From Euglena gracilis (taxonomy: Eukaryota): 64,000 nucleotides of DNA. Below the pieces are notes generated by a model, which searched no databases, was not told the origin of the DNA, and worked only from the letters and a program-made list of their open reading frames with translations. The stretch is from positions 31,148,012 through 31,212,011 of the forward strand of contig CP154954.1 in NCBI GenBank assembly GCA_039621445.1. The letters are read 5' to 3'. This document shows positions 17,587 to 56,697 of this stretch, one piece after another. Within the stretch, counting starts at the first letter, position 1. Each line of letters begins with the position of its first letter. A program made the position numbers and the translations under genes.

Positions 17587-23726
<6,140 letters not shown>

Positions 23727-26700
23727 CCCCCGCCGCCCCGCCCCGCGGACGGTGACGCGTGCGGGTCCACCTACGCGTCACCGTCGCGCGTTGCGCGTCA
23801 CACGTTGAGGTGGGCTTGGCGAGCGGGTGGTCGGCAGCCCCCCCCCCCCCCGGACGGCCTGTTGCTTGCCATAAATAAACAAACGGGAAAAAAGCTCCTG
23901 TGGATTCCGCCCGCTCTTCAACTGTGTCTGTGCTCTTTTGGACCAGAATACATTCCATAATGTGGGCCCGCCGCCAGACCATTATGCCACCGGCCATGCA
24001 GCGTTGCGGAAAGGTTTCGTTCCTTTCCCCTCCGACTCCGACTGGGTGTCGTGTTCCCTCCCCCAAAGGGGTGAGCCTGTGCAAGCACAGTGGGGGCAAG
24101 ACCAACCCACAAAGCATCCCATCCGTCTCCCTGCCCCTCGGCCAGCCTTCTGTGCGGTGCAATTGGAGGGAGACGAGGCGAAGGGTGTTCGCCGGCCTCC
24201 GGCCAGCGGGGGGCTCCAGGGGGTGGCGTGGCCGGGAAACAGGTGGGGACCCCGGATAACCCCCTCAGTGCAGATGTTTTGATGCTCTTGACCAGCAAAA
24301 TTAAATAAATGTTTCTGGGATAAAAAGCTGTCTGCCACCTTCCTCAGCTTTAATTCTAATATTATTCTTTCAGCTTGGAGATTCCCACTGGACATAAAGT
24401 GCCACAAAGCAAATATTTCCCAAAATTAGAAAATTCCAAAAAAGAAAGTTCCAATAAAGTAGAAAAAAATCTGCGAAAACAAAAGGTCCAAGAGATATCT
24501 CATGAAGTTGCCCACAAAAAAAGCCTTCAGCCCAAAAATTTTGGAAAAGGAGGCCATGGACATGGGAGGGACGGCAGTCCCTGAGAGTCGTTCTGTCCTG
24601 CTCAGGCTGTGCCAGCACAGGAGCGAAGCCAGTCCAGAGCCCGACATCAAGAACCTTCTGGGAGTGTCACTGCAAGACATGCACTGCAAATGACTCAACT
24701 TTGGCGGAAACAGGCGGTAAACTTGCTCCGTGGTTTCGTTGTTATCGTACTCTTTCCATCTGTACAAATTCACAGCCGAAACAACAGCAGCAGCAGCAGC
24801 AACAACATCAACAACAATAACAATTCAAGATACTGAAAATTTGATTTCCTGATCCCACAACCAGGTTTTGAATAGTGCTGAGCTCTATACCTTGCACGGG
24901 TTTTCACTGTAAAACTGAAAAAATGGCTCGGACGCAGAGGCGGAGTTAAAGAATTTTTCCCGACTTTTTTGACCCGTTTTTGACCCCAACTCCATGGGTT
25001 TCGGGCCAAAAACGGGGGGCCGGGGGGGGGGGGGGGCGAATAACGCTCATTTTCGGCTCAAAATCAGTTTTTTCGGGTCCCGGAGGCCAAAAGACATCCT
25101 TTCAGGCAAGATTTTTTTCGATTTTTTTCGACTTTTTGACCCCCAAAAAAATGTCCGAAAATGGTCAGAACAGGCCAAAACTGTACAAACTGGCCCAAAT
25201 TGGCTGAAAAATGGACATAACTTGGGCTAGGCGGGGAGTTGTGGGGGAATAAAAATACCGTTAGAAGGGGCATTTTAAGGGCTTCAAATTAGGTCTCCGG
25301 ACGTTTCCTTTGATTCCCCACCATTTGTGAGTAATTTCAGAAAAATCAATTTTTTGACCCTAAACAAGGCTAAAAACGCACGCACGACTGCCGCGCTGTT
25401 TTGGGACGTAAATTGGCCATATTTCGGGCTAGGCAGGGAGTTGCGGGGAAATCAAAATACGGTTAGATAGGGCATTTTAAGGGCTTCAATTTAGGTCTCC
25501 GCACATTTCCTTTGATTTTGCTTCATTTCCGAGATATTTTGAAAACATCGACTTTTTGACCCCGAAAACAGCCCAAAATGGTCCCTGAAATGGGCGAAAT
25601 TGGCCGGAAAAATGGCCGTAACTCGGGCTACACGAAGCGTTGGGGAAAAAGTAAACCATGGTTGGATAGGGCATTCCGAGGGCTTCATTTTTGCTCTGTG
25701 GACTTTTCCTTCGATTTTGCTTCATTGTCGAGATTAGATGTTAGAAACCCGATTTTTTTTGGCCCAAAACGGCCCAAAAAAACACCCCAAAATGGCCGTT
25801 TTGGGCAGCAAAGGCGCGCCGGAAGACGGGCCAGGCGTGTCGGCGGCCAAAACAGCGAACGGGGGGTGATAGAGGGCCTCCGGGGGTACATTTCGTCAGA
25901 CCGACATTTCCGGAAATAATGTACGTTTTCTCGAGATATTTTCGAAAAATCGATTTTTTGACCGATTTTTGGACCCGGCGAAATGGCAGAGTCGGAAGGG
26001 GGGGGGGGCAGGTTAATCCTATCCAGTTTGCCCTTCGCGGCTGAATAACTCGGGCCTGGCGGGGAGTTGGGGGTCAAACGGAGGTGATTCGGAAACTAGA
26101 AATCCAGTCGCTCGCAATTGAAAAAAAAAATCCGGGAACGGGGCCGGGGTCATGGTGATAATCCGCGGTTTTCACGGTCTACCCAGAGGGGGGGGGGCAG
26201 GGGGGTCAAACCCCCCCTTTTCCCTGGTGGTAAGCTTCGCTCTTACCCATAAAGGGATCGCTGAGCTCTTATCTCTTTAGAGTAAGAGCGAAGCTTACCA
26301 CCCCGGCCGGAGACCCCCTGACCCCCCCCCCCCCCCCCGCCCCCCCCGCCCCCCCCGCCCCCCCCCCCCCCCCCCCCCCCCCCCGCCCCCCCCCTGAGTA
26401 GGTCCAGCCACCCGAGGATTATCGATGTGACCTGATTTCCGGACCCGAAAGGTTAATAGCCTATAGGTTAGGAGAGGGTCCCTAGTTTGTCCAGAGCCCT
26501 TAGGTTGCCCGCAACTCCGCGCCAGGCCGGAGATATGGCCCGAGCAAAAAAGTTGTCTACCGTTTTTTTTCCAAAGAAAGTTTGTTGGACCGGCAACAGG
26601 GGGTCATTTTTGGGGTCAAAAAACCGAAAAATTCAAAATATCTCGAAAACGCCGGGGAGTTGAGAAAAAGTAAAGAGTACCTCATTCCACAACTTTGGGA

Positions 26701-27139: not shown

Positions 27140-27690
27140 CATGGCCCTCATGGTCATGATGCGCATCATGCCCAATGATGGCCATCATGCCCAATGATGG
27201 CCATCATGACCCCGGATGGCCATCATGACCAATGATGGCCATTATGACCAATGATGGCCATCATGACCAATGATGGCCATCATGACCCCGGATGGCCGCC
27301 ATGACCAATGATGGCCATCATGACCAATGATGGCCATCATGACCCCGGATGGCCATCATTACCAATGACGGCCATCATGACCAATGATGGCCATCATGAC
27401 CAATGATGGCCATCATGACCCCAGATGGCCATCATGACCAATGATGGCCATCTTGACCCCGGATGGCCATCATGACCAACGATGACCATCATGACCAATG
27501 ACGGCCATCATGACCAACGATGGCCATCATGACCCCGGATGTCCATCATGACCAATGATGGCCATCATGACCCCGGATGGCCATCGTGACCAATGATGGC
27601 CATCATGACCCCGGATGGCCATCATGACCAATGATGGCCATCATGACCCCGGATGGCCATCATGACCAATGACGGCCATCATGACCCCGG
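27140..27690. repeat. 19-bp minisatellite GATGGCCATCATGACC(AAT/CCG), ~28 copies
   Basis: Directly visible tandem array with two interspersed unit variants and a palindromic core. Confidence 0.95.
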
Positions 27691-27899
27691 GCCGGGCCGC
27701 CGGGCCGCCGGGCCGCCGGGCCGCCGGGCCGGGCTGCCGGGCCGGGCCGGGCCGCCGGGCCGCCGGGCCGGGCCGGGCCGGCCGGGCCGCCGGGGCTGGG
27801 CCGGGCCGCCGGGCCGCCGGGCCGGGCCGGGCCGGGCCGGGCCGGCCGGGCCGGGCCGGGCCGCCGGGCCGCCGGGCCGCCGGCCGGGCGCCGGGCCGG
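27688..27899. repeat. Almost pure-GC (GCCGG/GCC)n tract
   Basis: Directly visible. Confidence 0.92.
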
Positions 27900-28546: not shown

Positions 28547-31098
28547 CTACAAAATGCTGCCGGTATGACCGAAAAATGCACCGCGATGCGCCAGCCTCCT
28601 CAGCTTTGCACGAAGCACCCGGACGCTGCTGGACTGGGCAGGCGGATGGGTCACGCTGGCTGGCTGAGGCGGGGGAGGGGCGTGGACCACCGGGTGGGGG
28701 GCCGGTGGGCCCGCCCGCAAGGCAGGGGGAAGCGGACCGTGCGCCGGGTGGGCCGGGGCGGGGGCTGGGCCGGCCACCCCGGGGTAGTGGTGGGGCGGGG
28801 CGGGGCCCCCGGGGTGGGCCGCAGTGATGTGGGGTGGCAGGGGGGAGGCCATGGGGGGCGAGGGGGGGCGGCACGCCTGCGGAGGCGGTGGCGATCGGAT
28901 GCCGATGGTTTGGTGGTTTTGGTCCCCCATGCCCCGTGGTCAGTTGGATTTGATTTACTGGGCGGCTGAAGAGGGGTTGGGGGGGGGGGGGGCAAGCACC
29001 CCAAAAAAGCCACAGGGGCTTCCTGTGGCGTGCCATGCTTTGGCAATCATGCAAAAATGGCGTTCTCTGTCTATCTACGCCACTTGGTTGTGCCATAAGA
29101 ATGCCATGAGAATTGGCAAGAAAAATCATTTTGAGCTGTGAAACCCTTCCATGCCCTCACTTTCCTTCGGGGGGAGAGGAAGACATTTTTCAGTGACCAG
29201 CACAGGGGGCAGTTCCTCTCCCCCGGAGACGAGGCGTGCCCCCCGGCGCAATAGAGCGTTGGGCCTGGTAGGGGTGGGGGAGGGGGGCGGAGGGGTACTG
29301 GCCGGCAGGGTCCTGGCGGTACCCCATCGCCGGGGTCATGGGCGACATGGCGTTTTGTGAGGCCATCGGGGCCGGGCCCCGCTGCGGCGAGGTCAGCAGG
29401 GTATTAAGCTAAGTGGGGAGGAGGTGGCCTGGACCCCCGTGACAGGGGGGGGGGTGGGGCATAAAAAATTTTCTGTTGCAAAGTGCCAGAAAACCGCGTT
29501 TTTGCGCTTTTTTTGAAAAACAGGTCAAAACATACACCAAATTTTTCATCATTTCCGGCATGAAGCACTGGAAAAAAAATTGGGTTCCCGGGGGGGGGGG
29601 TCCTGGACCCCCTTTGCTCCGAAGGGAGGGGAAGGAGGGGGTTGGTGTGGACCCCCCCCTCCCCTGGGGGGCCTCCTCCCCCCTCCGCAAAACCACCTCT
29701 CACTTAATACCCTGGGGGTCAGCCTTCCTCCTTTCGGGCCCAAAGTGTTGGGAGGGCTTGCCACCCCAAAAATCTGAGTTTGGTCCACACGGAGGCGAGC
29801 GGCGAGGAGCGGTCCAACTGAACTCATCCCACGTGTCTGCGCCACGCAAGCAAATTAGAACTGCATGGAGCTGGGGAGTGGAATCCTGCAAACCATCCAA
29901 CACCTTTTCGGGGTTGGCGGGAGAGGGTGGCTTCGCATCAATCCGGCAAAAGATGGAGGGTGGGACATCAGAGGGCTACTTATTCATGCCTTGCTGTACA
30001 GGCTTCATGGCACACCCGAAGGACAACGAAGTTGCGTCCCGACAGACCCACACGCTCCCCCATGCCCCCTCCGGGCCATCCGCTTCCCAGGGGGGCCCGA
30101 GGCGGGGTCAAGTGGAATGTCCCCGCGTGGCCTTCCACGTTGACGGCGGTGGAGGTCCCCGCGCTGCCCAGCCCGCCGCCCTGCCACCCCGCAGGCATGG
30201 GGGGCTGCTGTTGGTACGGCCCGCCCAGGCTGCCCGCAGGCACCCGCGTTCCGGTCTGATATGACTCGCGACTCGCAACTGCAATTGTGACTCCAAGGCA
30301 CGACTCACGACTCGCGCCTTGCGCTTCACAATCACAACTCCAGAGTTGCGACTGACGGCTCATGACTCACAACTTGCAAAACGCGGCCCTCCCCCAGGGA
30401 GGATATGTAGTGAACTGGACCCCAAAATATGCGCTAAAATATGCTAATTATGCAAAATATGCGCAATACAGATATACGCAAACACACGGAAAAATATGAG
30501 ATTTTTTCGAAACCAGGAAGCTTTGGGTTATGTTCTATTAAGTACTTTCAGGACATTTCGGTCATTTTTGGGGGCCATTTGAGTGCATGATCAGCTACAA
30601 TTGGCTGTTGTCGGACCATTTTCGACCAGTACGAGCCATTTTGGGCCATTTTGTGGCCGAAAGTGACCCAAAATGAAAGCAAAACCACCCAAAATTGTCG
30701 GAAGAAATTCAGAACGGCAACAATAATATGCGGAAAAGATGCAGAAACGGGCAAAATGCGTGGCATAAAAATTCTGAAAATATGTGCTGAATATTCAAAA
30801 TATGTTCAAAACAAGCGCCCCACATATCCCCTCCTGGTAACTCACAACTCACAACTCTCTGGCTCCAGACTCGCAACTGACGCTCACAACTCACAACGTG
30901 TGACTTGCAGCCCGTGAATTGCGGCTCATTCATGACCCGCTCCGTCTGGCTGGACTCCAGCGTGACGATAGGTGCCTGGCCAGTGGGCGCCCCCTGCGGC
31001 GCGGGCGGGGCGGAGCCGGGGGTGAGGGTGGACGGGGCGTACACCGTCAGGCCGCGGCCGGTGGAGTCGTACAGGGTCATGGGCGTCAGCACTTGCAT
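28547..31098 (-). CDS. Pro/Gly-rich low-complexity hypothetical protein (about 4 exons)
   Basis: ATG at 31098 shortly after a pyrimidine tract and AG. Exon 31098-30937 (54 codons) joins by GT-AG to the exon starting at 30255 (TGTRVPAGSLGGPYQQQPP). Further exons at ~29382-29230 and ~28870-28547. Strong GC3 bias. Confidence 0.6.
29397..29714. mobile_element. hAT-like MITE
   Basis: 12-bp TIR CAGGGTATTAAG; TSD GAGGTCAG / GGGGTCAG (1 mismatch). Confidence 0.78.
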
Positions 31099-31844
31099 GA
31101 CGGCGGGAAGCGAGAGAAGTAAGCGCCTGGGAAGGGGGCAAAGGGAAGACCGTGGCGGAACGCGAAGGTGAGATAGTGCGGGTGCTAAGTGCCTGTGGGG
31201 GTCCCCTAAAAAAGGTTGTTGCAGTCACAACACCACCTTGAGCCCCCTGTTGGGAGTATTGTCTCCACGTCCGCAATTGGACATTCCCCGAATCACAAAT
31301 TCGGGTTGTTTCCAATTCACCCAAGTTGCAATTGGCGGGCCTGTTTGATCATACGTGACAATCTGATCAAGGGAATTGCTCCTGATTGGGGCTCATAGGC
31401 ACCTGAAATATTCCCACACTTCAAGTTCACTCAATGAATCCGGGGGAGAGGGGGGGCTGGAAAATTTACTCTGGTACTGTACATAATTGAAAATAAAGCA
31501 AATACAAAACTACTGATATGTTTCCGAGGCTTCAAATGGCATCAAAACACTGCATGCTTTGCCCAACGGGAATTCCACCACAAATGGGTATCCTGGTTGA
31601 ATTCTAATTCTCAGATGTATGGGATGATTAGAGCTTCATTTGCAATGCATTGGGACATTTAAAATCATTCAATTAAATAGTCACACAAGTCTTTGTCTTA
31701 GGTGGCGCTAATTGCCCAACCAATTTCTGCGTTTTTTGACGTTTTTTGGGGGGCTGTTTTGAAACCCCCCTAAAAGGGCACAAAATTTTGGCTTGAGAAG
31801 GGCGTGTGGCGGCTTTGGACCAAAATTTTTTGAAAGTGGTTTTG

Positions 31845-34800
31845 CGCGGGTTTCCGCCCAAAATGATTTACGATTGTGTGTGAACTGTGTGAGTTGGGGG
31901 TGTACTAGACATGTTTGATATGGCTCAAAAAACAATGACTTTGAATGGGTGTGACGTGGGGCTGTGTCTTCATGGTTTATGCTAATAACAGTATTTGAGA
32001 AACAAATGAATATTGCAAGCGTACGCGGATAACCGCGTAAAACGAAACAAGAGGTGACAGACGACAGAGTTAAATGTTTGGGTGGATAACTGCGTAGAAT
32101 AAACTTGTACGCGGATTTCCGTCTACAACTGAAAACAAAGTATGGTACACGGATTACCGCCTACCATAACACAAACAGTTGATGACTGGTAGGAGGGAAT
32201 CCGCCTGCTGTGTGCGACTATGTGGTGAGTGTATGGCGACTTGATGTAGGCGGGAATCCGTCTGGATTGAATAAGAAACAATGGTGGTGCCCTGGTGTTG
32301 TTGCTCTCACCCCCCCCTGTGTCGAGACTGGCATAGGCCAGGTGCCATTGCCTGCTGGGGTCTCTGGAATGGGGGACAGTAACGAAAGTAGCGGAGAACT
32401 CCCTGACGACGTGGGCAGGTGCCACACAATGATATCCTGCCTTCGCCAACGCACTTGAATAGAAAAAGGTTCCTGTCTAAAACGGCCCAAAAAAATAGAA
32501 CAAGTAACTGATTTATGAAACTCTGCACTCGCAGCATCCAGTATGAGCCAAAATCCACAAAGTCTTTCCACCCAATAACAATTTTGTTTCAGGCGGTTAA
32601 CCGCCTGACCATTTCCACATTAATTTAAAAACACTATTGAGGAGTTGGCATGGGGTTAGGTGGGGACCAAGAGACGACGTAGGCGGTTATCCGCTTAAAA
32701 GAAAATACAGAGCGCCCGCTCAGGAGGCCAACAGATGACTTGTCACGCTTGAGCACTGAGGCCTGGTCTCCTTTTATGAATTCGGATGGAAACGGGGTGT
32801 GCACAGACACAACTTATGAGATGGAGGGGGGGGCATACCAGTTGTGAGGTCAGAGAATTCAGGAGGGAAAACGCCTGGCCGGGTTAAGGGTGGGCAGAAA
32901 AAGCAAAGCATTTGTGGACGATGGGATGGGGGTGGAAGATGGAAACCACCCTAGAAATAAACTGTGCTGGTTTGTTTGCAAAATTTTGCAACCCTACTTG
33001 TGACACCAGTCACAGGCGTGAACCTTTGCGGAGTACACGGACGACAGAAATTGTTGCCAGGCTGCCAGGCAGTTTGCAACTGAATGGTGCCTGGCATGTT
33101 GTCGTGAGTTTGAGGGGTGGAGGATTATGGAAACCAGGGATAGGAGTTTGTACCAGCAGGGTTTGACCAAACGAGGAGAGACGGCCAGCCCTTAAACTTG
33201 GGCACTCAGAGCAGGGGTGGTTTCCAAAAAGACCGGACACACTTGTGCTGAGAGTGGTTACATGGATGGAAGCCAAATGCATCGGGTCAAACATCGACCC
33301 GGCGTTGGTTGAGAACGACAACCTTCTGGTTTGCCCCCTCCCACACGGCTTCTGACGGTGGAGACCACCGTTGCCTCCTCTGGAGGCATGTTGCCAACCC
33401 CAAAGGAAGAAGAGCCAGAAAAAAGAGGTGGTTTGGGCATTTTGTCTGGATTTAAGCAAAAACTGCAACTTTTCAAAGAAAAAATGAAAAAAAATTCTTT
33501 CAAAAAACAATTAAAAAGGCCTTGACTTTTTCAGAACTTGGGAGACTCCTTCCCAAAACCCCCCCCATTCTTTCGATTGCTGTCACCAGCTGATGAAACA
33601 GGCGTCCAGATCTTGAATCACTTCTTCGTCAGCCTTCCCCAAACCCTGATTTTGGGCCACCAAAACCGTTGGGTTCCAAGTGGAGGCCCTGGGAGATGCC
33701 TTTGTTCCTCCTGAGAAATCAACCTTATGTTTTTGGCTGTTTTTCGGGAGAATAATAAAATATCACCTCTGCTACAGCTCACCCGGCCTGGCAACTGACA
33801 CATGCGTTCCACTGCTGTCCCTGCAGACGACCCCTTCACCACTGGCCAGGGGGAAAATTACCGCCTCCTCGTCGGAGAGGAGGGTGTCCACCTCCTGCTC
33901 AAATGCCAGGCGGGTTTCCGCCTGCTCGGGTGCTTGCTGTCCCGGCGCAGCAGCCACAGCTCCCCTTCAACCTGTCCCGCCCAACTTTCAAACATTGTGC
34001 CGCCGACAACGACCACCGACACCGACACTTCGGGACACCGAAACATCACAAACACAACCCATCAAGACAGCAACAAGCTCCACGCAGGTTTCCGCCCAAA
34101 CCACATCTGGGCGGAAACCCGCACAAAATAAAAGCGGAGTAGGCGGATAACTGCCCACTGCCGTCGTTCAATAACGCCTCAAAGTCCTCCTCCCTCTCCC
34201 ACAAACTTGTTCATTAACAACTTCACGCGATGAACGACTTCTGGAGGTTTCAGCGCATTCCCACGTGTCATCCACAAACACGAACTGTTCTCATTCTCAA
34301 ACCCTTCTGCGCGGGTTTCCACCTAAAAGATCCCCAGCTCACCCACATCATTCATATGCCGTGCGTGCTGCATCCCCACCCCGACACAGCACCATCCACC
34401 AAACAAAAAAAAAACTCCAACACAACATGCCCACTCATTCTAGTCAGCTGTGCGTGAAGCTTTCTAACGTTTCATGCATTCATGTGCACGGAGATCCGCC
34501 TGCAAACGGCCTTACAAAAACTTCCAAAAAAAAGTTGCGTTCTGTTTCCACACCGCCTCAAACAAAATCTTTGAGTATCTCTCAGTGGGGGTTGAAAGGT
34601 GGGGGAAAATGTTCAGTTTTGCGTGGCCCAGGTGTGTCATCAGGAGGGAGCTTGTGTGCGGACAAATTAAGGACACCACGCACTCAAACCGCATCTCATT
34701 TCAGTTCACCTTGGCCACAAGTTTCTCAAAGTTCTTGAACTTGTGATGGCTAGAATGGTGTTGAAGCCTTTCCCAACCCCTCTGTTCTGGATGGCAGCAC

Positions 34801-35600
34801 AGGCAACCAGGCCCCTCTCCCTCCCGTGCCTTCCTGACCCAACTGTCATCCCGCGCTGCTAAATGATACATCGTGGTGCACAGCCCAGGAGGAGGGGGAT
34901 GCTGGGGGGCTTGTAAACCAACCAGGACACCCGGGGCAAGCACACACAGCGCACACCTTTGTTGCGCTGTGTTGCTTTGTTGCGGAATCAGCACTGCTTT
35001 ACGCGGTAAACCGCCTAACCTCAGTTTTAACATTATTCCCAGTCCAGTCCCCTCCATAAGGGTAGATATCTTCATCACAAAAACAAATTTTGCGCGGTTT
35101 ACCGCCTAACACGTCCCTTTCAGAAATTATAGCATCTTTTGGGCAGTGCTGTCTGTTCACCTCCCTAATCACTGGACCTCGGGACTCACGAGATGTTCAA
35201 AAATAGGCGGGTTGCTTAGGCGGTTGCCTCTTCTTCACCTGCCACACCGTGTCACCCCCCTCCAGAGGGGTTCCGGCAGCATCGCCAAACAACCGGGGCT
35301 CCAGTGGCCAGGTGTTCTCCCACTGTTCTCTGTTTTTCAAAATTTCAGGGCGTTCCAGGGGGGTGTTTTTGAAAACCCCCCTAAAATGATCATAAATTTT
35401 CAAAATCGCCACATTGTCAAAATGCTTAAAATGGACCCAGAACGACCCAAATTTTTGTGCTGGTGTCACCCTCTCAAAAGTTTAACCTCAAACAGGTAAC
35501 AGGTGGGGTATCGTAAGCGGAAACCCGCGCACCTCAAACGCACAGAAATTTGAAAAAAATGGGCAATTCGCGCAGCCTAAGTTTGTATGTAATTCCAACT
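31845..35600 (-). mobile_element. Decayed intron-containing element, possibly a KDZ (Kyakuja-Dileera-Zisupton) transposase, with a dispersed palindrome array
   Basis: Minus-strand fragments in KDZ-like order: CACPGCP..AVHHDVSF (~34950-34860), VSLICPH..LLMTHL..PTERY (~34680-34570), VGMQHARH, and spliced NDVEGFENENS (~34380-34283). Many stops and frameshifts. Boundaries approximated from the palindrome distribution. Confidence 0.4.
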
Positions 35601-36065
35601 TTGCCATTCACCACTTCAACGCTCTCCTTTTTTCCCTGTTACCTCCCCCTGTCATAGCACCGGAAAATATCGACATATTGCACCGAGGGGTGCTTAGACA
35701 AGGGGGAGAATACAACGACTCAAAAAAAAAACAGCGCTCCACCTGAAAAAAAAATTCCTTCCATTTTTGTCAATTGCTCAACTTTGAGGCATTTTGGGTG
35801 TATAAAGTCCACAACATCTCACCAATTAACCTTCGTGAATAAAAATCTTCATAAAAATCTGATAAAAATACATCAGAAAAACTTGCATTCAGGGAGTGGC
35901 CTTTAAAAAGATTGTCAAGCACCGGGGAAAGGGGGGACTGGGATACTCCAGTACTTAGACAAGGAAAAGATTTCTTTCAGGGGAATATTTTAGGTCGATA
36001 ACCCTCTGGTAGTTTGCGCCTAAAGAACCTGAAGCACCAAGAAACTTGGGTGAAAAACTAGAATG

Positions 36066-36230
<165 letters not shown>

Positions 36231-36483
36231 GGCAGAGAACTTCTTTGGGCTGGATAGCGCAAATATCTATGGTACAGGAACGGTGGATTTCCCGGAGTCA
36301 CCCCCCTCAACTGCCTGAGTGGCGCCAGACAGGCAGGCGATGCACCAACAAGACACAGCCCGCAATCGGACAAATCTACAACCGGTTAAACAAACGCAGG
36401 GGAGGCGTCTTTTGCAGAGTGCAGTTGCGGCGGGCAAGCGTTCGGGACAAAAGGAGGTTGCTTCGCCACCAACACCCACCCCA

Positions 36484-51400: not shown

Positions 51401-54400
51401 GGAGCTTTGTGGGAAAATTATCCCAAAAATGGTTCAATTCTCCAAAATATACAAGAAAAATGCCAGCATCGCCCAGCATCGCCCAGCATCGGAACCCCAC
51501 CTCTGGTCTCCAAAAATCCAGCATCGCCCAGCATCGCCCAGCATCGCCCAGCATCATCAGAGGTGCTTGGACACAGCTGCGCCCCTCGAAACCAAACACC
51601 TTGCATTCTGGTGGAGCCCTGATCCTTCCTGATCAGGGGTTTTTTTTTAAGACTGGGGGGAGGGGGTCCCCCACCCATCCTCCCCCTGGGGGGGGGGGTC
51701 CCGTGGGACCCACTGACTTTTCCCCGAAAAATGGCCAAAGCTCGCGAAAAATGCAAAAATAGCCCCTTTTTCAAAAAAAAATTTGGCGCCTTCGGTGCTG
51801 AAAAATATATCCCACTGGGGGGGGGGCTCAGCCGGACCCACCCACCCTACCCCCCCAAGACCAAAAAACCCCTGTTCCTGATTGTCCCTGGTTGGCAAAT
51901 TATTGGTCAGAGGTGGGCGTATGCCAATTAAAAAAATTCACGTTTGGCCGCTTTTGGGCAGCGTTTGGCCAACTTGCCCACTGTTGGCTGCTTCTGGCCA
52001 CTTTTGTCTGCTTTGGCCACTTCTGGCTGCTTCCGGTTCCTTTTTTGCACACTTGGGGTTGGGTATGACCTACAAAATTGGGAGTGTAAATTAATGCCCC
52101 ATGTTGTAGGTGCCTGCTCATCACACCATTGGGTTGATGTCAGAATTTGCTTTCATATGGAGTCTCAGCATTGTCAGGAAGCACAGGGAAAAAAATGTTT
52201 TTTTCCACCTCCACCTCCAGCTCCTCTTTTTATACTTGCATCGTGATTTATTGTTCACCACCTTAAAAGAACTCTTTCATCATGCTTCACATTTCACAAC
52301 CACAAATTTCTGTTCTGCATATCTCTATATATGTATATATATATGTGTATATATATGTATACATATATATACATATATGTGTATATATTATATTAGAAGA
52401 GTATAATCTGAGAGAGAGAGAGAGAAGCGAGAAAGAGAGAGAAAGAGAGAAGAGAGAGAGAAACTTATATCTAATAATAGTAGAGAAGAGAGAGATAGAG
52501 AAGAGAGAGAAGAGAGAAGAGACAGAAAAGAGACTAAGAGAGAGAGAGAGATAGAGATAAGATAAGATCAGAGAGAAGAGGAGAGAGAGTCTTGAGAGAG
52601 AAGAGAGAGAAGAGAAGAGATATAGAGAATATAATAGAGAGACAATATCTCTCTCTAAGATAGATATGGAGAATATATCTATCTCTTATCTATAGATGAA
52701 GAGAGATAGATATAATATAAGATATTATAGAGATAAGATATAGCTATACACTATATCTATGTATATATATTGTATTATGTATATACAGACTAAAAAGAGA
52801 GAAAGAGAGAAAGAGGAAAAAGATAAAAGAGAGAAGAGAAGAGAATAGAGAGAGATAAAGAGAGAAAAAGAAAGACAGAGAGATATAATAAACACAAGAG
52901 AAATATAAGATATATCAGACATAGAGAAAGAGATAAAGAGATAGAGACTAGACAGAAGACAGAGAATAAGAATAGATAGAAGAAGAGAAGAGAGAGGAGA
53001 GAGGAGAGATAAAGAAAAGAAGAGAGAGATAAAGAAATATATATAAATAAAGAGATATATATATATATAGATATATATATAGAGAGAAGAATAGACAATA
53101 TATATACTATATATATTAATATAAAATAGATACATATCATATATAGAGATAAAATAATATAAGATTATATTATATATAATATATATATTATATATTCTTA
53201 TCTGTCTAGACATGTATATATATAATGTATATGAAGTGTTTACATCGTCTATACAGAGAACATACTAGAGAGAGAAGACAGAAAGAGGAGAGAGATAGAA
53301 AAAAGAAGAAGAGAGAGAAGATAAAGAGAGATATATCAGATAAGAGAGAAATAGAGACAATAGAGAGAGAGATAAGAGGAGATAATACTATCAGAGAGGA
53401 GACATAGACATAGACAGAAATCTATCCTAAATATCTATATTATAGAATATAGAGTATAGGTATAGGAGAGATAGAATATATCTAATATATAGATATTATA
53501 TATTTCTGTATAGAGTAGATATAGACATAGGTATAGAGAGGATATATGTATATGTATATATATCTGATATCTCTCTTATATCTAATATCTATACTCTAGT
53601 ATATATATTAGAGACTATAAGATAAGATAGAAGAGATAGAGATAATATAGATAAGAGATATAAGAGATATAATTCTTAGACAAGTATAATATATTCATAT
53701 TATAGTATATCTATATGATTCTCTGTATACATGTATGTATATATATGTATACATATTGTATATATAGAATAGGTATATATAAATATATAATAGATATCTC
53801 TTATTCTGAGAATTATATATACAACATAATATATATCTATATATATATATAATCTACTGTATACAGAAATATATATATATATATAATATATATCTCTCTA
53901 TATATATATATATATTTGTATATATATATTTTAGATATATATATTATACATTGTATGTATATGTATATATATTTCTGTATACATATATACATGTATATAT
54001 ATGTATATATATGTATATATAAGTGTATATATATTATATATAATATATAAAAATATATATATATATAAAAATATATATAAAAATATAATATATATAAAAT
54101 ATATATATATATATTTCTGTATACATGTATAAATATAATGTTTGAGTATGACAGGGATGATGGGACACGAAGCAAATGTTGTCACTAAAACAAATGCTGT
54201 CTCTTGAGTAATATGCTCTCATATATACCCTCACACTCTCAAATTCACTCTCAAATATGTTCATGTGGGGGGCACTGTTGAGCCAAGCAACACTTGCCGG
54301 ACAACCTGCAGCAAGTGCCGCCCTTTCAGGTGCTTGAACGGGGAGAGGTGGTCGCCCTCCCCGGCGACCGGCGGCAGGAAGGTGTCGATGGCGTGAAGCA

Positions 54401-56697
54401 GCCCGTGCTCGCTGTCGAGGGAGAGGGTCGGCCGTATGGGGACTGGGTTGTGAGGTGTTTGCCATCTGCAGGGATCTGTGAACAGAGCCTGGCCACCCTC
54501 ATAACGGAACATCTTCGAGGTTTCTGAGTTCTCCGGGAGCTGGCAGGCAAAATGGGAGTCAAAACTTCATTCGTGCATTCCGCTGCTGAACCACCTCTGT
54601 ATCATTTCAATGATGCCACAAGAGACCAGGATGCTCTCCGACAGCAAAAATAAAGAAATTAATAAGTTGTACTTGCAGAATGGTTTCCAATAACGCTGGC
54701 CCACTTGGACGTTTGGTGTAACCATGCCAAAAACTTTGCCCTCACTTGCAAAAGTTTGGAAACTGTCACACTTGTGACTGTTCCCAAGATGTGTATGCAT
54801 GCACATGCACACGCACACACATATACACACATGCACACACACACACACACACGCACGCACGCACGCATGCACACATGCACGCACGCATGCACACACACAT
54901 GCACACACACACACACGCTCACACACACACACACACGACACTGGCTGAGGTGGCCACACAATGTCGCGAAGGCAAGGGAGGCAATGTATCATGAACAAAC
55001 TTGAGTTGTGAAAAATAAATAATTGAAGAAGGACCCAGGGAGTTATTGACGACGCCTGACATGAAATTAGATGCAATTCTCTCCTAACACCAACACACAG
55101 CACATACAGAAATATTGGAGCCGACCCTTTGCAGACCAGGCCTTCGGCAGACGCCGGCTCACCCAACACATGTGAGTCACAGCAGTGGTGTGCTGGTGCA
55201 CCATCCGGGCCGAGGACACGGCCTCCGCGGTGGCCGAGGCGCTGAACCGCACCACGCACTTCCCGTCCTCCACCCGGTGGTCGCAGGGCCTCCCCGCCTC
55301 CAGCCCCCCCCACGCACAAAAAAAAAGTAACGGGAAAGGCAGATGAATAAAATGAAGAACACAAATAGAATGCGCCACTGTAGGACATGAAAGACAGATA
55401 GTTTGCGTGTGACCTGGCACAGCGTTCAACGGCCCGGGGCCTGGGCAGAGGTGCACCTCGCCGTTGGCCAGTCCCGCCGCCAGAAGCTTGCCGGTGGGGC
55501 TCCACAGCAGTGCCGTCACCTCCGCCGGGGTCGTCAGCTGGAACAGCCGCTGGAACGACAGCGCGTTGTGCAGGACGGTCCACGGCCGGTCACACCGCGA
55601 TGAGACGTGACCCCAAAATGACTCCGATCCACTCACTCCGTCTTGGGGGGGGGGGGGTTCAGATCGACACACCTTGCACCTTGCACTCAATTGCCTCCTG
55701 AAAATGTGGTGGATGGATCGCAATGCAACGCATCGTTCTCAAGATACAATATCGCTTTCAGTGGAGCGGCTGGCTAAGACTTGCCCGGGGGGGTGGCCAG
55801 CATACAATTGCTTACCGACCCCCGGGGGGGGGGGGGGGGGGTCACTCCACTTTTTTTTAAAAACCAGTCAGTCACTCATTTTCAAAAAACCAGCCAGTCA
55901 CTACCCCCCCCCCCCCTGGGGGAGGTCGGCCACTCAGAAAAACGGCCACTTTCCAGTCACTTTAGGCCATTTTAAGCCCAAAAAAATTTTCGGCGCCAGG
56001 GTCACTCAAGCCACTTTTGCCCACTCCTGGCCGACCCCCCCGGGGGGGGGGGGGGGGGGGATCGCGGGCCAAAACCCAGTCAGTCCTTCTGAAAAACCCA
56101 GCCCCCCCCCCGGGGGGGGGGGGGGGGTTGGTCAGTGCTTAAGCAATTGTCTGGTGGCCAGCCGGGGGCGATGCTGCTCCGCGCCGCCACGGCGACCAGG
56201 TCCATCTCATGGCACAGTGTGACGAGGGAGATCGGGCCCGGCACGGCCTTGCTGTGGAGCAGCCGCATCGGTCCTGACCCGCCGCCCTGCCGCAGCGGGT
56301 CAGGCGCCCACAGGGATGGCGGGTGCCCTGCGGATGGGTGGGACAGCCATGGGGCGGGGAGCTGCTTGTGGGAGGAGGGCGGGAGAGGTGGGGACTGGGG
56401 AGAGACTTCCCCTGAGATAGCCTTAGGGGTAGGCAAATTTTCCAACAATTTTGGCCCAGTCCTTATCCTTATCCTTATCCTTATCCGGTTCTTTGACCGT
56501 CCGCAGAACCGAAGTTTTCCCACCCTCTTACTGTCGAGGTAGGAGGGGAGGTCTGACCCCCCCTCTCCGTGTTGGGGGTCTGGTCCCGCTTCCCACACAT
56601 CCCTGGCCGTGTGCTGTGGGGCCACCGGCTCCGGGGAACCCCAACGGTCAAACAGTCCTTGCACTTCCCCCTGCAGTTCTGCGACACTAGACAACAT
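36484..56697 (-). CDS. APC4: Anaphase-promoting complex subunit 4 (WD40 plus helical domain), about 20 exons
   Basis: Spliced N-terminus [68 protein letters not shown] (exons 56327-56169, 55575-55446, 55277-~55140) fits the ANAPC4 WD40 pattern. Internal exons are in the expected order: ~54460-54305, ~49405-49365 (HGWFPIQHL), ~49000-48900, ~48495-48380, ~47640-47560, ~46590-46510, ~45265-45175, ~44330-44260 (YGSFGLH), ~42870-42730 (ELLHWL), ~40960-40585, ~39540-39400. C-terminus is [31 protein letters not shown] with TGA at 36484-36486. First exon 56697-56532 is tentative. Confidence 0.85.
36581..37383 (-). other. Non-conventional (euglenid-type) intron, last APC4 intron
   Basis: G|CGCAGCCCCCT ... 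AGGGGGCTGTCGTCCG|T. Purine|pyrimidine at both junctions, CAGCCCCCT pairs with AGGGGGCTG, and removal gives in-frame GTACVATAQ. Confidence 0.75.
39997..40170. mobile_element. 174-bp hAT-like MITE made of GTGATACA repeats
   Basis: 25-bp TIR CAGACCGCCATTTAGTGTGTATCAC (1 mismatch); TSD CCTTGGAA. Confidence 0.88.
50568..51087. repeat. 18-bp minisatellite GCATCTTGTCCAGCATCT, ~28 degenerate copies
   Basis: Directly visible inside an APC4 intron; the wider region is bracketed by (CAGCATCGCC)n at ~50180 and ~51465-51555. Confidence 0.92.
51634..51874. mobile_element. hAT-like MITE
   Basis: TIR CAGGGGTTTTTT; TSD TTCCTGAT. Confidence 0.83.
52320..54140. repeat. Degenerate (GA)/(TA) low-complexity tract
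   Basis: About 1.8 kb almost devoid of C, intronic in APC4. Confidence 0.9.
55278..55445 (-). other. Non-conventional intron in APC4
   Basis: G|CCCAGG ... CCCTGCGACCA|C. CAG/CTG pairing; removal gives EVHLCRVEDG. Confidence 0.72.
55576..56168 (-). other. Non-conventional intron in APC4
   Basis: G|CCCCCGGCTGGCCAC ... GTGACCGGCCGTGGACCG|T; removal gives [11 protein letters not shown]. Confidence 0.72.
55801..56153. mobile_element. hAT-like MITE inside a non-conventional APC4 intron
   Basis: TIR CATACAATTGCTTA / TAAGCAATTGTCTG; TSD GTGGCCAG; near-identical to 22497-22845. Confidence 0.87.

Follow-up and report, generated by a model that had tools for sequence, protein, structure and literature searches.

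The element described here occupies positions 31697-35581 of a 64,000-nucleotide stretch of Euglena gracilis DNA (GenBank assembly GCA_039621445.1, contig CP154954.1, positions 31,148,012 to 31,212,011 of the forward strand), which is referred to throughout as the window and is numbered from its first letter. It carries 19 copies of a short palindrome with the core GCGG-N4-CCGC, and the described systems closest to it are DNA transposons in which short words are reiterated near the ends. In the plant transposons En/Spm (CACTA), with their TnpA sites, and Ac/Ds, with their hexamers, arrays of subterminal repeats are bound by the transposase or by an accessory protein. In PIF/Harbinger elements, exemplified by Harbinger3_DR, a Myb-like partner protein binds palindromic subterminal motifs, of which there are few per end, and insertion generates 3-bp duplications. 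Transib elements combine a 5-bp target duplication with ends that begin CAC and a RAG1-like transposase. Internally deleted derivatives are typical of cut-and-paste elements.

The chromosome-level assembly of E. gracilis comprises 2.37 Gb and consists of repeats to 58.84%; unclassified repeats are given as 32.7% of the genome and annotated DNA elements as 4.6% (PMC11252322). The host is also relevant for its splicing, since a code for nonconventional introns, 5'-N3CDG-/-CH'GN5-6|R, has been defined genetically in Euglena (PMC12501133; also PMC11282704). Pairing adjoining the CDG/CH'G motif is described there as required for splicing (PMC12501133), introns of the CAG-CTG and of the CGG-CCG type are both spliced in Euglena, and their origin from sequences like MITEs (miniature transposable elements with inverted repeats) is treated as an open hypothesis (PMC12501133; PMC3935182). 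No description of the present element or of its motif in euglenids was found in the literature covered, which left aside the supplementary datasets of PMC12501133, where short CGG-CCG introns may be listed.

The repeat unit, its ends and its family

The repeat unit measures 3,885 bp (31697-35581), and the palindrome cluster coincides with it. Its main parts are the following, with the strand given where one applies:

31692..31696: left target-site duplication TTTGT, identical to 35582-35586 and directly outside the left inverted repeat
31697..31718, plus strand: left terminal inverted repeat, 22 nt, 86% complementary to the right one
31748..31789, plus strand: block with the G6...C6 motif, found again in direct orientation at 35359-35400; the motif occurs nowhere else in the window
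32879..33905: central stretch of about 1 kb that lacks good motif copies (cores with 0 or 1 mismatch are absent) and has the family's greatest depth
34325..34983: 659-nt segment absent from many family copies (joint 34324>34984; trough in depth)
35334..35405: 72-nt imperfect palindrome holding the second G6...C6 block, found by self-comparison
35560..35581, minus strand: right terminal inverted repeat, 22 nt, 86% complementary to the left one
35582..35586: right target-site duplication TTTGT, abutting the right inverted repeat

The abundance of the unit was read from a DNA sequencing run (X1), and its transcripts from a contig run (X15, taken as RNA on the evidence of a spliced contig) and two raw-read RNA runs (X21 and X24, the latter stranded). 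These are public runs with the organism label of the window, and they delimit the unit independently of its inverted repeats; a search among sequencing runs had listed no RNA run as a holder. The depth of short words (k-mers) in X1, which when summed is not equivalent to copy number, lies between 49,680 and 508,660 in all 18 bins covering 31690-35631, against 122-170 in the adjacent flank bins. The step on the left falls within bin 31690-31908, and on the right the depth has dropped to 170 in bin 35632-35850. A single-copy DNA contig that enters from the left (31567-31725) reaches 29 nt into the element before it breaks off, which is what is expected of a contig built from 31-mers where it meets a repeat. 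Matches to the unit were found in 15,028 distinct X1 contigs, with 2257 at a likeness of at least 99%, 5095 at 95-99% and 7676 at 90-95%, and this number of distinct contigs, together with the summed depth, indicates a large and diverged family. The stretch from 31697 to 35581 is a decayed, probably non-autonomous member of a repeat family of very high abundance, the copies of which are mostly 90-95% alike.

The pattern of the ends is matched in the 64-kb window only at the two termini of the unit, where 0.03 matches would be expected, and it has 0 matches in metagenome contigs and 0 in viral contigs. When the element was compared by blastn with the rest of the window, no second copy was found at E ≤ 1e-3, and the whole window has 0 Rfam matches at gathering thresholds. 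Self-comparison of the element revealed no long internal duplication, only short motif pairs, and its only direct repeat is the internal 42-nt block at 31748-31789 and 35359-35400 (74% alike). Read by letter, this block is G6-N-TTTTGAAA-C6-TAAAA; there is one near either end of the element, and the two have direct and not inverted order. A long terminal repeat (LTR) retrotransposon, considered on account of the 5-bp duplication, was rejected, as the ends are inverted and not direct and the sole direct repeat is internal and 42 nt long. Of the properties of class II (terminal-inverted-repeat) elements, inverted repeats, a flanking duplication and a high copy number with the repeat stopping at its ends are observed here, and the unit is very probably a transposon. 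Its kind is already known, and the family is unclassified.

Comparison of the runs gave 141 joints, of which 15 were listed, and everything said here about joints refers to those 15. All 14 joints listed for the element are present in DNA contigs, several of them with filler letters, and these are internal-deletion forms of the family; no listed joint spans the whole unit. Joint 34324>34984 was recovered in 2 DNA contigs (depth 1,715), in 1 X15 contig and in 1 read each of X21 and X24, and it matches a depth of 50,000-69,000 in the bins of 34318-34974, while central depth reaches 300,000-414,000 at 32785-33441 (both X1). A separate variant was seen in one X1 contig (depth 142), in which 78 nt of 32560-32639 are replaced by 39 letters; by eye, about 39-41 nt with the perfect palindrome are missing. 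The stretch with this palindrome is flanked on both sides by TTTCCAC (32565-32571 and 32612-32618), and the variant may have arisen by deletion from one copy, or the other copies may have gained the stretch by insertion.

The palindromes as candidate end-binding sites

A first-pass annotation, made from the letters alone, had reported about 18 copies of one palindrome confined to 3.7 kb and no such cluster elsewhere in the window, and this description is borne out. All 19 positions that it listed hold the GCGG-N4-CCGC core, nine of them exactly, eight with 1 mismatch and two (32082 and 32863) with 2, and the perfect 20-mer that it had pointed out is present at 32589-32608. The copies fall into two domains, with ten at 31842-32878 and nine at 33906-35532:

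31842..31861: palindrome copy 1, outermost left, 0 mismatches; core of 15 nt fully complementary to copy 19
32021..32040: palindrome copy 2, 0 mismatches; 7 of 8 arm positions symmetric
32078..32097: palindrome copy 3, degenerate, 2 mismatches
32107..32126: palindrome copy 4, 1 mismatch
32145..32164: palindrome copy 5, 1 mismatch
32189..32208: palindrome copy 6, 1 mismatch
32246..32265: palindrome copy 7, 1 mismatch
32589..32608: palindrome copy 8, CAG...CTG type, the only perfect 8+4+8 palindrome; as a hairpin -9 kcal/mol, z -5.4
32679..32698: palindrome copy 9, 0 mismatches
32859..32878: palindrome copy 10, degenerate in the window copy, 2 mismatches
33906..33925: palindrome copy 11, CAG...CTG type, 0 mismatches; fold z -3.2
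34080..34099: palindrome copy 12, 1 mismatch
34107..34126: palindrome copy 13, 0 mismatches; 95% complementary to copy 1 and its flank
34139..34158: palindrome copy 14, 1 mismatch
34307..34326: palindrome copy 15, 1 mismatch
34484..34503: palindrome copy 16, 1 mismatch
34999..35018: palindrome copy 17, 0 mismatches
35090..35109: palindrome copy 18, 0 mismatches
35204..35223, plus strand: two TAGGCGG half-sites in direct order, 13 nt apart (35204 and 35217), absent from the first-pass annotation
35513..35532: palindrome copy 19, outermost right, 0 mismatches; inverted partner of copy 1

Counts under several definitions of the motif agree on its local character. The strict pattern AGGCGGN4CCGCCT, when 2 mismatches at most are allowed, is matched 19 times in the window (13 of them at 32023-35107) against 3.35 ± 1.62 in 100 shuffles, the maximum of which was 7. 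The core alone, with up to 1 mismatch, has 53 window matches, 17 of which lie at 31846-35517, and the matches outside the element have G/C-rich spacers. Cores in which at least three of the four spacer bases are A or T number 23 in the window, 17 inside the element and 6 in the other 60 kb, where no exact core with an A/T spacer was found. The half-site 7-mers TASGCGG/CCGCSTA show the same distribution, with 12 of the 16 in the window lying inside the element. A scan of the window for short hairpins found tandem arrays only and no other dispersed palindrome family, and in metagenome contigs the pattern GTASGCGGWWWWCCGCSTAC matched 32 loci, each with a single site; no locus shows a cluster or resembles the window, and these are chance matches. 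The motif cluster is real, strongly non-random and local.

What is conserved in these copies is, for the most part, sequence rather than pairing. The 38 half-sites of the 19 copies share the consensus KTASGCGG, in which the letters of GCGG are retained in 34-37 of 38, and arm position 4 is unpaired in 11 of the 19 copies. Arm cells are paired in 80.9% of cases, compared with 77.4 ± 2.0% when the 3' letters are shuffled (a value reached by 26 of 500 shuffles), and among ten copies folded as single-stranded sequence, three did better than every one of 200 shuffles and seven were matched by 8-30 of 200. Two conserved half-sites therefore account for most of the apparent pairing. The asymmetric form CGCGG-N4-CCGCC, with a C-C clash at arm position 4, occurs in the same plus-strand sense in 8 of 19 copies and in the reverse form in 1, so that the sites have a polarity beyond that of a pure palindrome.

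The half-site word also recurs at the ends of the element. Bases 2-9 of the left terminus read TTAGGTGG and those of the right terminus, in reverse complement, TTAGGCTG, and each is the palindrome half-site with 1 mismatch. The two mismatches to the consensus fall at different positions, from which it follows most simply that the common ancestor of the ends would have carried the exact word. It is this recurrence at both termini that leads to the palindromes being read as reiterated end-binding sites, and this agrees with what characterizes subterminal repeats, a short word that recurs in the two subterminal regions and is akin to the termini. That the motif belongs to the family, and not to the window copy alone, is indicated by the concentration of A/T-spacer cores and half-site 7-mers inside the element and by position 32871, where most other family copies have C in place of A (57,065 of a depth of 58,475 in X1), which restores the CCGC half of copy 10.

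The explanation that is somewhat favored, taken jointly with the transposon assignment, is that the palindromes are reiterated end-binding (transposase) sites arranged in two subterminal domains, a prediction made from sequence. Considered alone, protein binding as the role of the recognition word is predicted at about even chances. According to this model, an element of the euglenid nuclear genome would have inserted at TTTGT and duplicated this target, carrying the word KTASGCGG once per terminus and in about 19 inverted pairs with a 4-nt A/T-rich spacer. A dimeric end-binding protein, either the transposase or an accessory protein encoded by other members of the family, would dock on these words and thereby assemble the two ends for cut-and-paste movement. 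The internal-deletion forms with filler letters, whose listed joint ends fall into palindromes in 7 of 28 cases, also speak for a cut-and-paste element. The window copy has no recognizable coding capacity and would therefore be moved in trans, if at all. The first-pass annotation had offered, as one of two options, an element that places binding sites for its own dimeric protein in its introns and 3' flank; this comes close to the present model, as the motif belongs to a mobile element bounded by inverted repeats and its half-site recurs at the termini. Placement of the sites in introns, and a window copy that encodes the protein, would be further assumptions.

Among described systems, En/Spm and Ac share with the element a short word in both orientations, two subterminal domains, terminal inverted repeats, inverted word pairs and many internally deleted non-autonomous derivatives. 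Unlike these, the element has its word almost only in 8+4+8 inverted pairs, its domains take up 1.0 and 1.6 kb of a 3.9-kb unit, its duplication is 5 bp and not 3 or 8, its host is a euglenid and no transposase is known for it. PIF/Harbinger elements resemble it in the palindromic motifs close to their ends, by which a protein would be brought to the one end and the other; it departs from them in its 5-bp duplication, its many sites, and the absence of a Myb-like or DDE open reading frame by Pfam. With Transib it has in common the 5-bp target-site duplication and the terminal inverted repeats. Membership in Transib is nevertheless not supported, as the ends begin CTTAGG and Pfam found no RAG1-like or other domain in the open reading frames.

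Several observations weigh against end-binding sites on a cut-and-paste element. The 5-bp duplication was read from one copy only, and among classified superfamilies it fits, to our knowledge, none but Transib. The motif domains are far broader, at 1.0 and 1.6 kb, than classical subterminal repeats. Neither Pfam nor protein searches detected a transposase in the window copy, and the superfamily consequently cannot be assigned. A Pfam search of 20 open reading frames of the element (at least 50 codons, E ≤ 1) returned nothing credible, the best values being 0.14 for DUF1635 and 0.21 for EBV-NA3. A 166-codon open frame lies on the minus strand of the central stretch (33010-33510), and a phmmer search with it against 1.84 billion cluster representatives retrieved only P0001 and a low-complexity protein. 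P0001, a protein of 114 aa with 88% identity over 75 residues, is clearly the open reading frame of another family copy; past residue 75 it follows, in a comparison by eye, a different frame of the window copy, and the 166-aa frame is thus not conserved between copies. Word-based protein searches gave no candidates for a 94-aa frame, and none that was significant among 326 word-sharing candidates for a 134-aa frame or 27 for a 133-aa frame.

Depth, transcription and pairing add further points to be set against the model. In X1, internal bins are 3-4 times deeper than terminal ones, an excess that is not expected of a simple internal-deletion family; the unit may be of mosaic make-up, with parts in common with other repeats. 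Stranded run X24 has the family's RNA deriving about 9:1 from the minus-strand sense (53.5 against 5.9 in summed bins), and the family seems to have a preferred transcribed strand, which hints at a transcription unit. The minus-strand neighbor gene shows the same read orientation in X24. Passive read-through of copies in random orientation would not be expected to give a bias of about 9:1. Lastly, the outer arm positions show a small excess of covariation (0.279 against 0.224, reached by 13 of 500 shuffles), which leaves room for some selection for pairing, though this residue may reflect the copying of whole sites.

Alternative accounts and nonconventional splicing

The alternative that survives best, itself unlikely, is that the palindromes are functionless by-products: internal duplicates of subterminal sequence that go back to errors of gap repair, to unequal recombination or to truncated copies nested in one another, and that are retained only because the family is young enough. 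Copies 12 and 13 (34080-34126) resemble two subterminal words, one of the left type and one of the right type, in head-to-head arrangement and form together a larger palindrome of 39 nt (34084-34122, self-complementary), and the preponderance of one asymmetric form in the same sense suggests that a single prototype was copied. One joint, 32115>32152, leads from one motif to another, and the ends of the listed deletion joints fall into palindromes (380 nt) in 7 of 28 cases, where 2.7 are expected (P = 0.016). What tells against by-products is the retention of the GCGG core in nearly all half-sites although family copies differ by 5-10%, together with copy flanks that share nothing past about 24 nt, the family majority at 32871 that restores a half-site decayed in the window copy, and the presence of the half-site word at both termini.

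Next in order are accounts that involve nonconventional splicing, for which the gene beside the element provides the reference. This trans-spliced minus-strand gene (30103-31127) has exons at 31127-30982 and 30231-30103, with a further exon border at 30103, and its joint 30231>30982 is found in a 2,699-nt X15 contig, in 11 X21 reads and in 2 X24 reads, and is absent from DNA. The intron so defined (30981>30232) is 750 nt long; on the minus strand it begins GGC-CAG-GCACC and ends GGTGC-CTG-CGGGC, followed by A, and thus has CAG after a spacer of 3 nt, then 8 paired bases, and CTG before a spacer of 5 nt and a purine, in exact agreement with the nonconventional code. Behind 31127, 7 reads carry the loose letters GAAAAAAAAT, which on the minus strand are ATTTTTTTTC followed by G. 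This tail matches the 3' end of the euglenid spliced leader, given for Eutreptiella as ...CUAUUUUUUUUCG in PMC3621762. The spliced-leader tail and the textbook nonconventional intron identify the window as euglenid nuclear DNA. The product of the gene looks rich in Pro and Gly.

It is improbable that the palindromes are RNA modules of this splicing code, with parts of the element or 26-nt hairpins being cut from transcripts. Such an account would draw on the CGG...CCG present in every core, on copies 8 and 11, which read CAG-GCGG-N4-CCGC-CTG, and on the minus strand of copy 8, which on reading fits N3-CAG/-/CTG-N5 followed by a purine. It would also accord with the one-strand bias of family RNA, with the splicing of both triplet types in Euglena and with the proposed MITE-like origin (PMC12501133; PMC3935182). 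Like nonconventional introns, the element has a euglenid host and CGG...CCG or CAG...CTG in paired arms, a transposon origin has been proposed for such introns, and a genuine one lies nearby (30232-30981, 570 nt away).

The details nonetheless depart from the code. Copies 8 and 11 fit it by CAG/CTG and the other copies only by the innermost CGG/CCG, a reading that leaves no paired bases before the 4-nt loop, while pairing is shown to be essential in PMC12501133. CAG...CTG is found in only 2-3 of 19 copies, and in no more than these are there 4 paired bases within CAG/CTG, the pairing expected just inside the triplets. An intron of 26 nt would be about half the length of the 50-bp synthetic introns tested in the same source (PMC12501133). 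In contrast to nonconventional introns, the ends of the element lack CDG/CH'G at +4 and -8, the palindromes are 20-26 nt long with a 4-nt loop, and 11 of 19 copies have no pair at arm position 4. No RNA-only joint was listed inside the element, all 14 of its listed joints being also in DNA.

In its broadest form, any link of the element to the CDG/CH'G splicing code is a long shot. It would have the palindromes serve as ready-made splicing-code modules on a high-copy transposon, the arm pairs being recognized in a transcribed insert of either orientation and the insert or parts of it being removed, and is rated marginally lower still than the hairpin account. If it were true, the family would be a present-day instance of the transposon source that has long been proposed for nonconventional introns.

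There is little to recommend the idea that the sites serve the host, as binding sites of a cellular factor for silencing, chromatin or replication that were co-opted by, or targeted to, the family. The dimer-type site and the spread of the motif through the body of the element, rather than just its last 200-300 bp, would suit such a factor, but the other 60 kb of the window contain 0 exact A/T-spacer cores, and the word stands at the termini, where element-encoded proteins act.

The first-pass annotation had put forward, as its other option, an introner-like family of hairpin micro-introns that colonized one gene, with palindromes inside tiny GT-AG segments of the minus strand. The segments themselves are real: those at 32564-32609, 34107-34158, 34307-34342 and 35070-35112 (46, 52, 36 and 43 nt) all start with GT and end with AG, excision of 34307-34342 does remove an in-frame TAG, and excision of 35070-35112 brings two open frames together. 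Such joining is seen at 2 of the 4 segments, with no exon that has a homologue. Also in favor of the idea, family RNA is mostly of minus-strand sense in X24, and in one DNA contig about 39-41 nt around the perfect palindrome are missing (32560>32639).

Placement in such segments is, however, at chance level. Segments of the form GT..AG and 36-52 nt long number 202 on the plus strand and 265 on the minus strand of the element and cover 61% (plus) and 69% (minus) of random 12-mers, compared with 12 of 17 palindrome cores on each strand, and the palindrome arms often supply the GT and AG themselves (GTAG..., ...CAG). Most introns in the euglenid lineage are nonconventional, and short GT...AG spans accordingly carry almost no information. 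No exon is backed by a protein homologue or a Pfam domain, the 166-aa frame is not kept in P0001, the only related open reading frame found, and the palindrome-lacking variant does not have the borders of the proposed intron. None of the listed joints matches a proposed intron, a weak negative at an RNA depth of about 1-7 per bin; the neighbor intron was detected in the same RNA runs (X15, 11 X21 reads, 2 X24 reads) at a depth similar to that of the element.

Introners of algae and dinoflagellates, as presented in PMC11282704, resemble the element as repeated families with inverted repeats and target duplications that are able to sit in transcribed DNA. The element differs from them in its length of 3.9 kb and its intergenic position upstream of the neighbor's spliced-leader site, and the proposed 36-52-nt units, again unlike introners, share nothing beyond the 20-nt motif in self-comparison. 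A minus-strand gene with its palindromes in 36-52-nt spliceosomal GT-AG micro-introns of an introner-like family is not supported and is the least probable of these accounts, with hardly any weight left to it.

Surroundings of the element and its place in the genome

The window contains other repeats near the element. X1 depth is 14,940 in bin 29500-29718 and 340-1,180 at 30376-30813, a part of the neighbor intron with short repeats of the ATATGC type. To the right of the element, at a distance of 485 nt, lies a perfect (GTT)55 microsatellite (36066-36231), and a (TTG)34 array lies at 20893-20993. Positions 26322-26394 are a run of 73 C, and 27141-27899 hold a 19-nt tandem array of 28.8 copies followed by a CCGGG-type array. 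A low-GC island at 52000-54200 (27% in 52001-54000) contains GA, TA and AG-rich microsatellites. Outside the element, the only Pfam-supported frame among 41 long open reading frames is a WD40/ANAPC4_WD40 repeat on the minus strand at 55067-55738 (E 7.6e-07).

For E. gracilis, with its large share of unclassified repeats, an element with defined ends, a target duplication and a recognition word offers a handle for classifying part of that fraction. The defined ends would also help to find the autonomous partner and its transposase, and to mask copies of the family in gene models.

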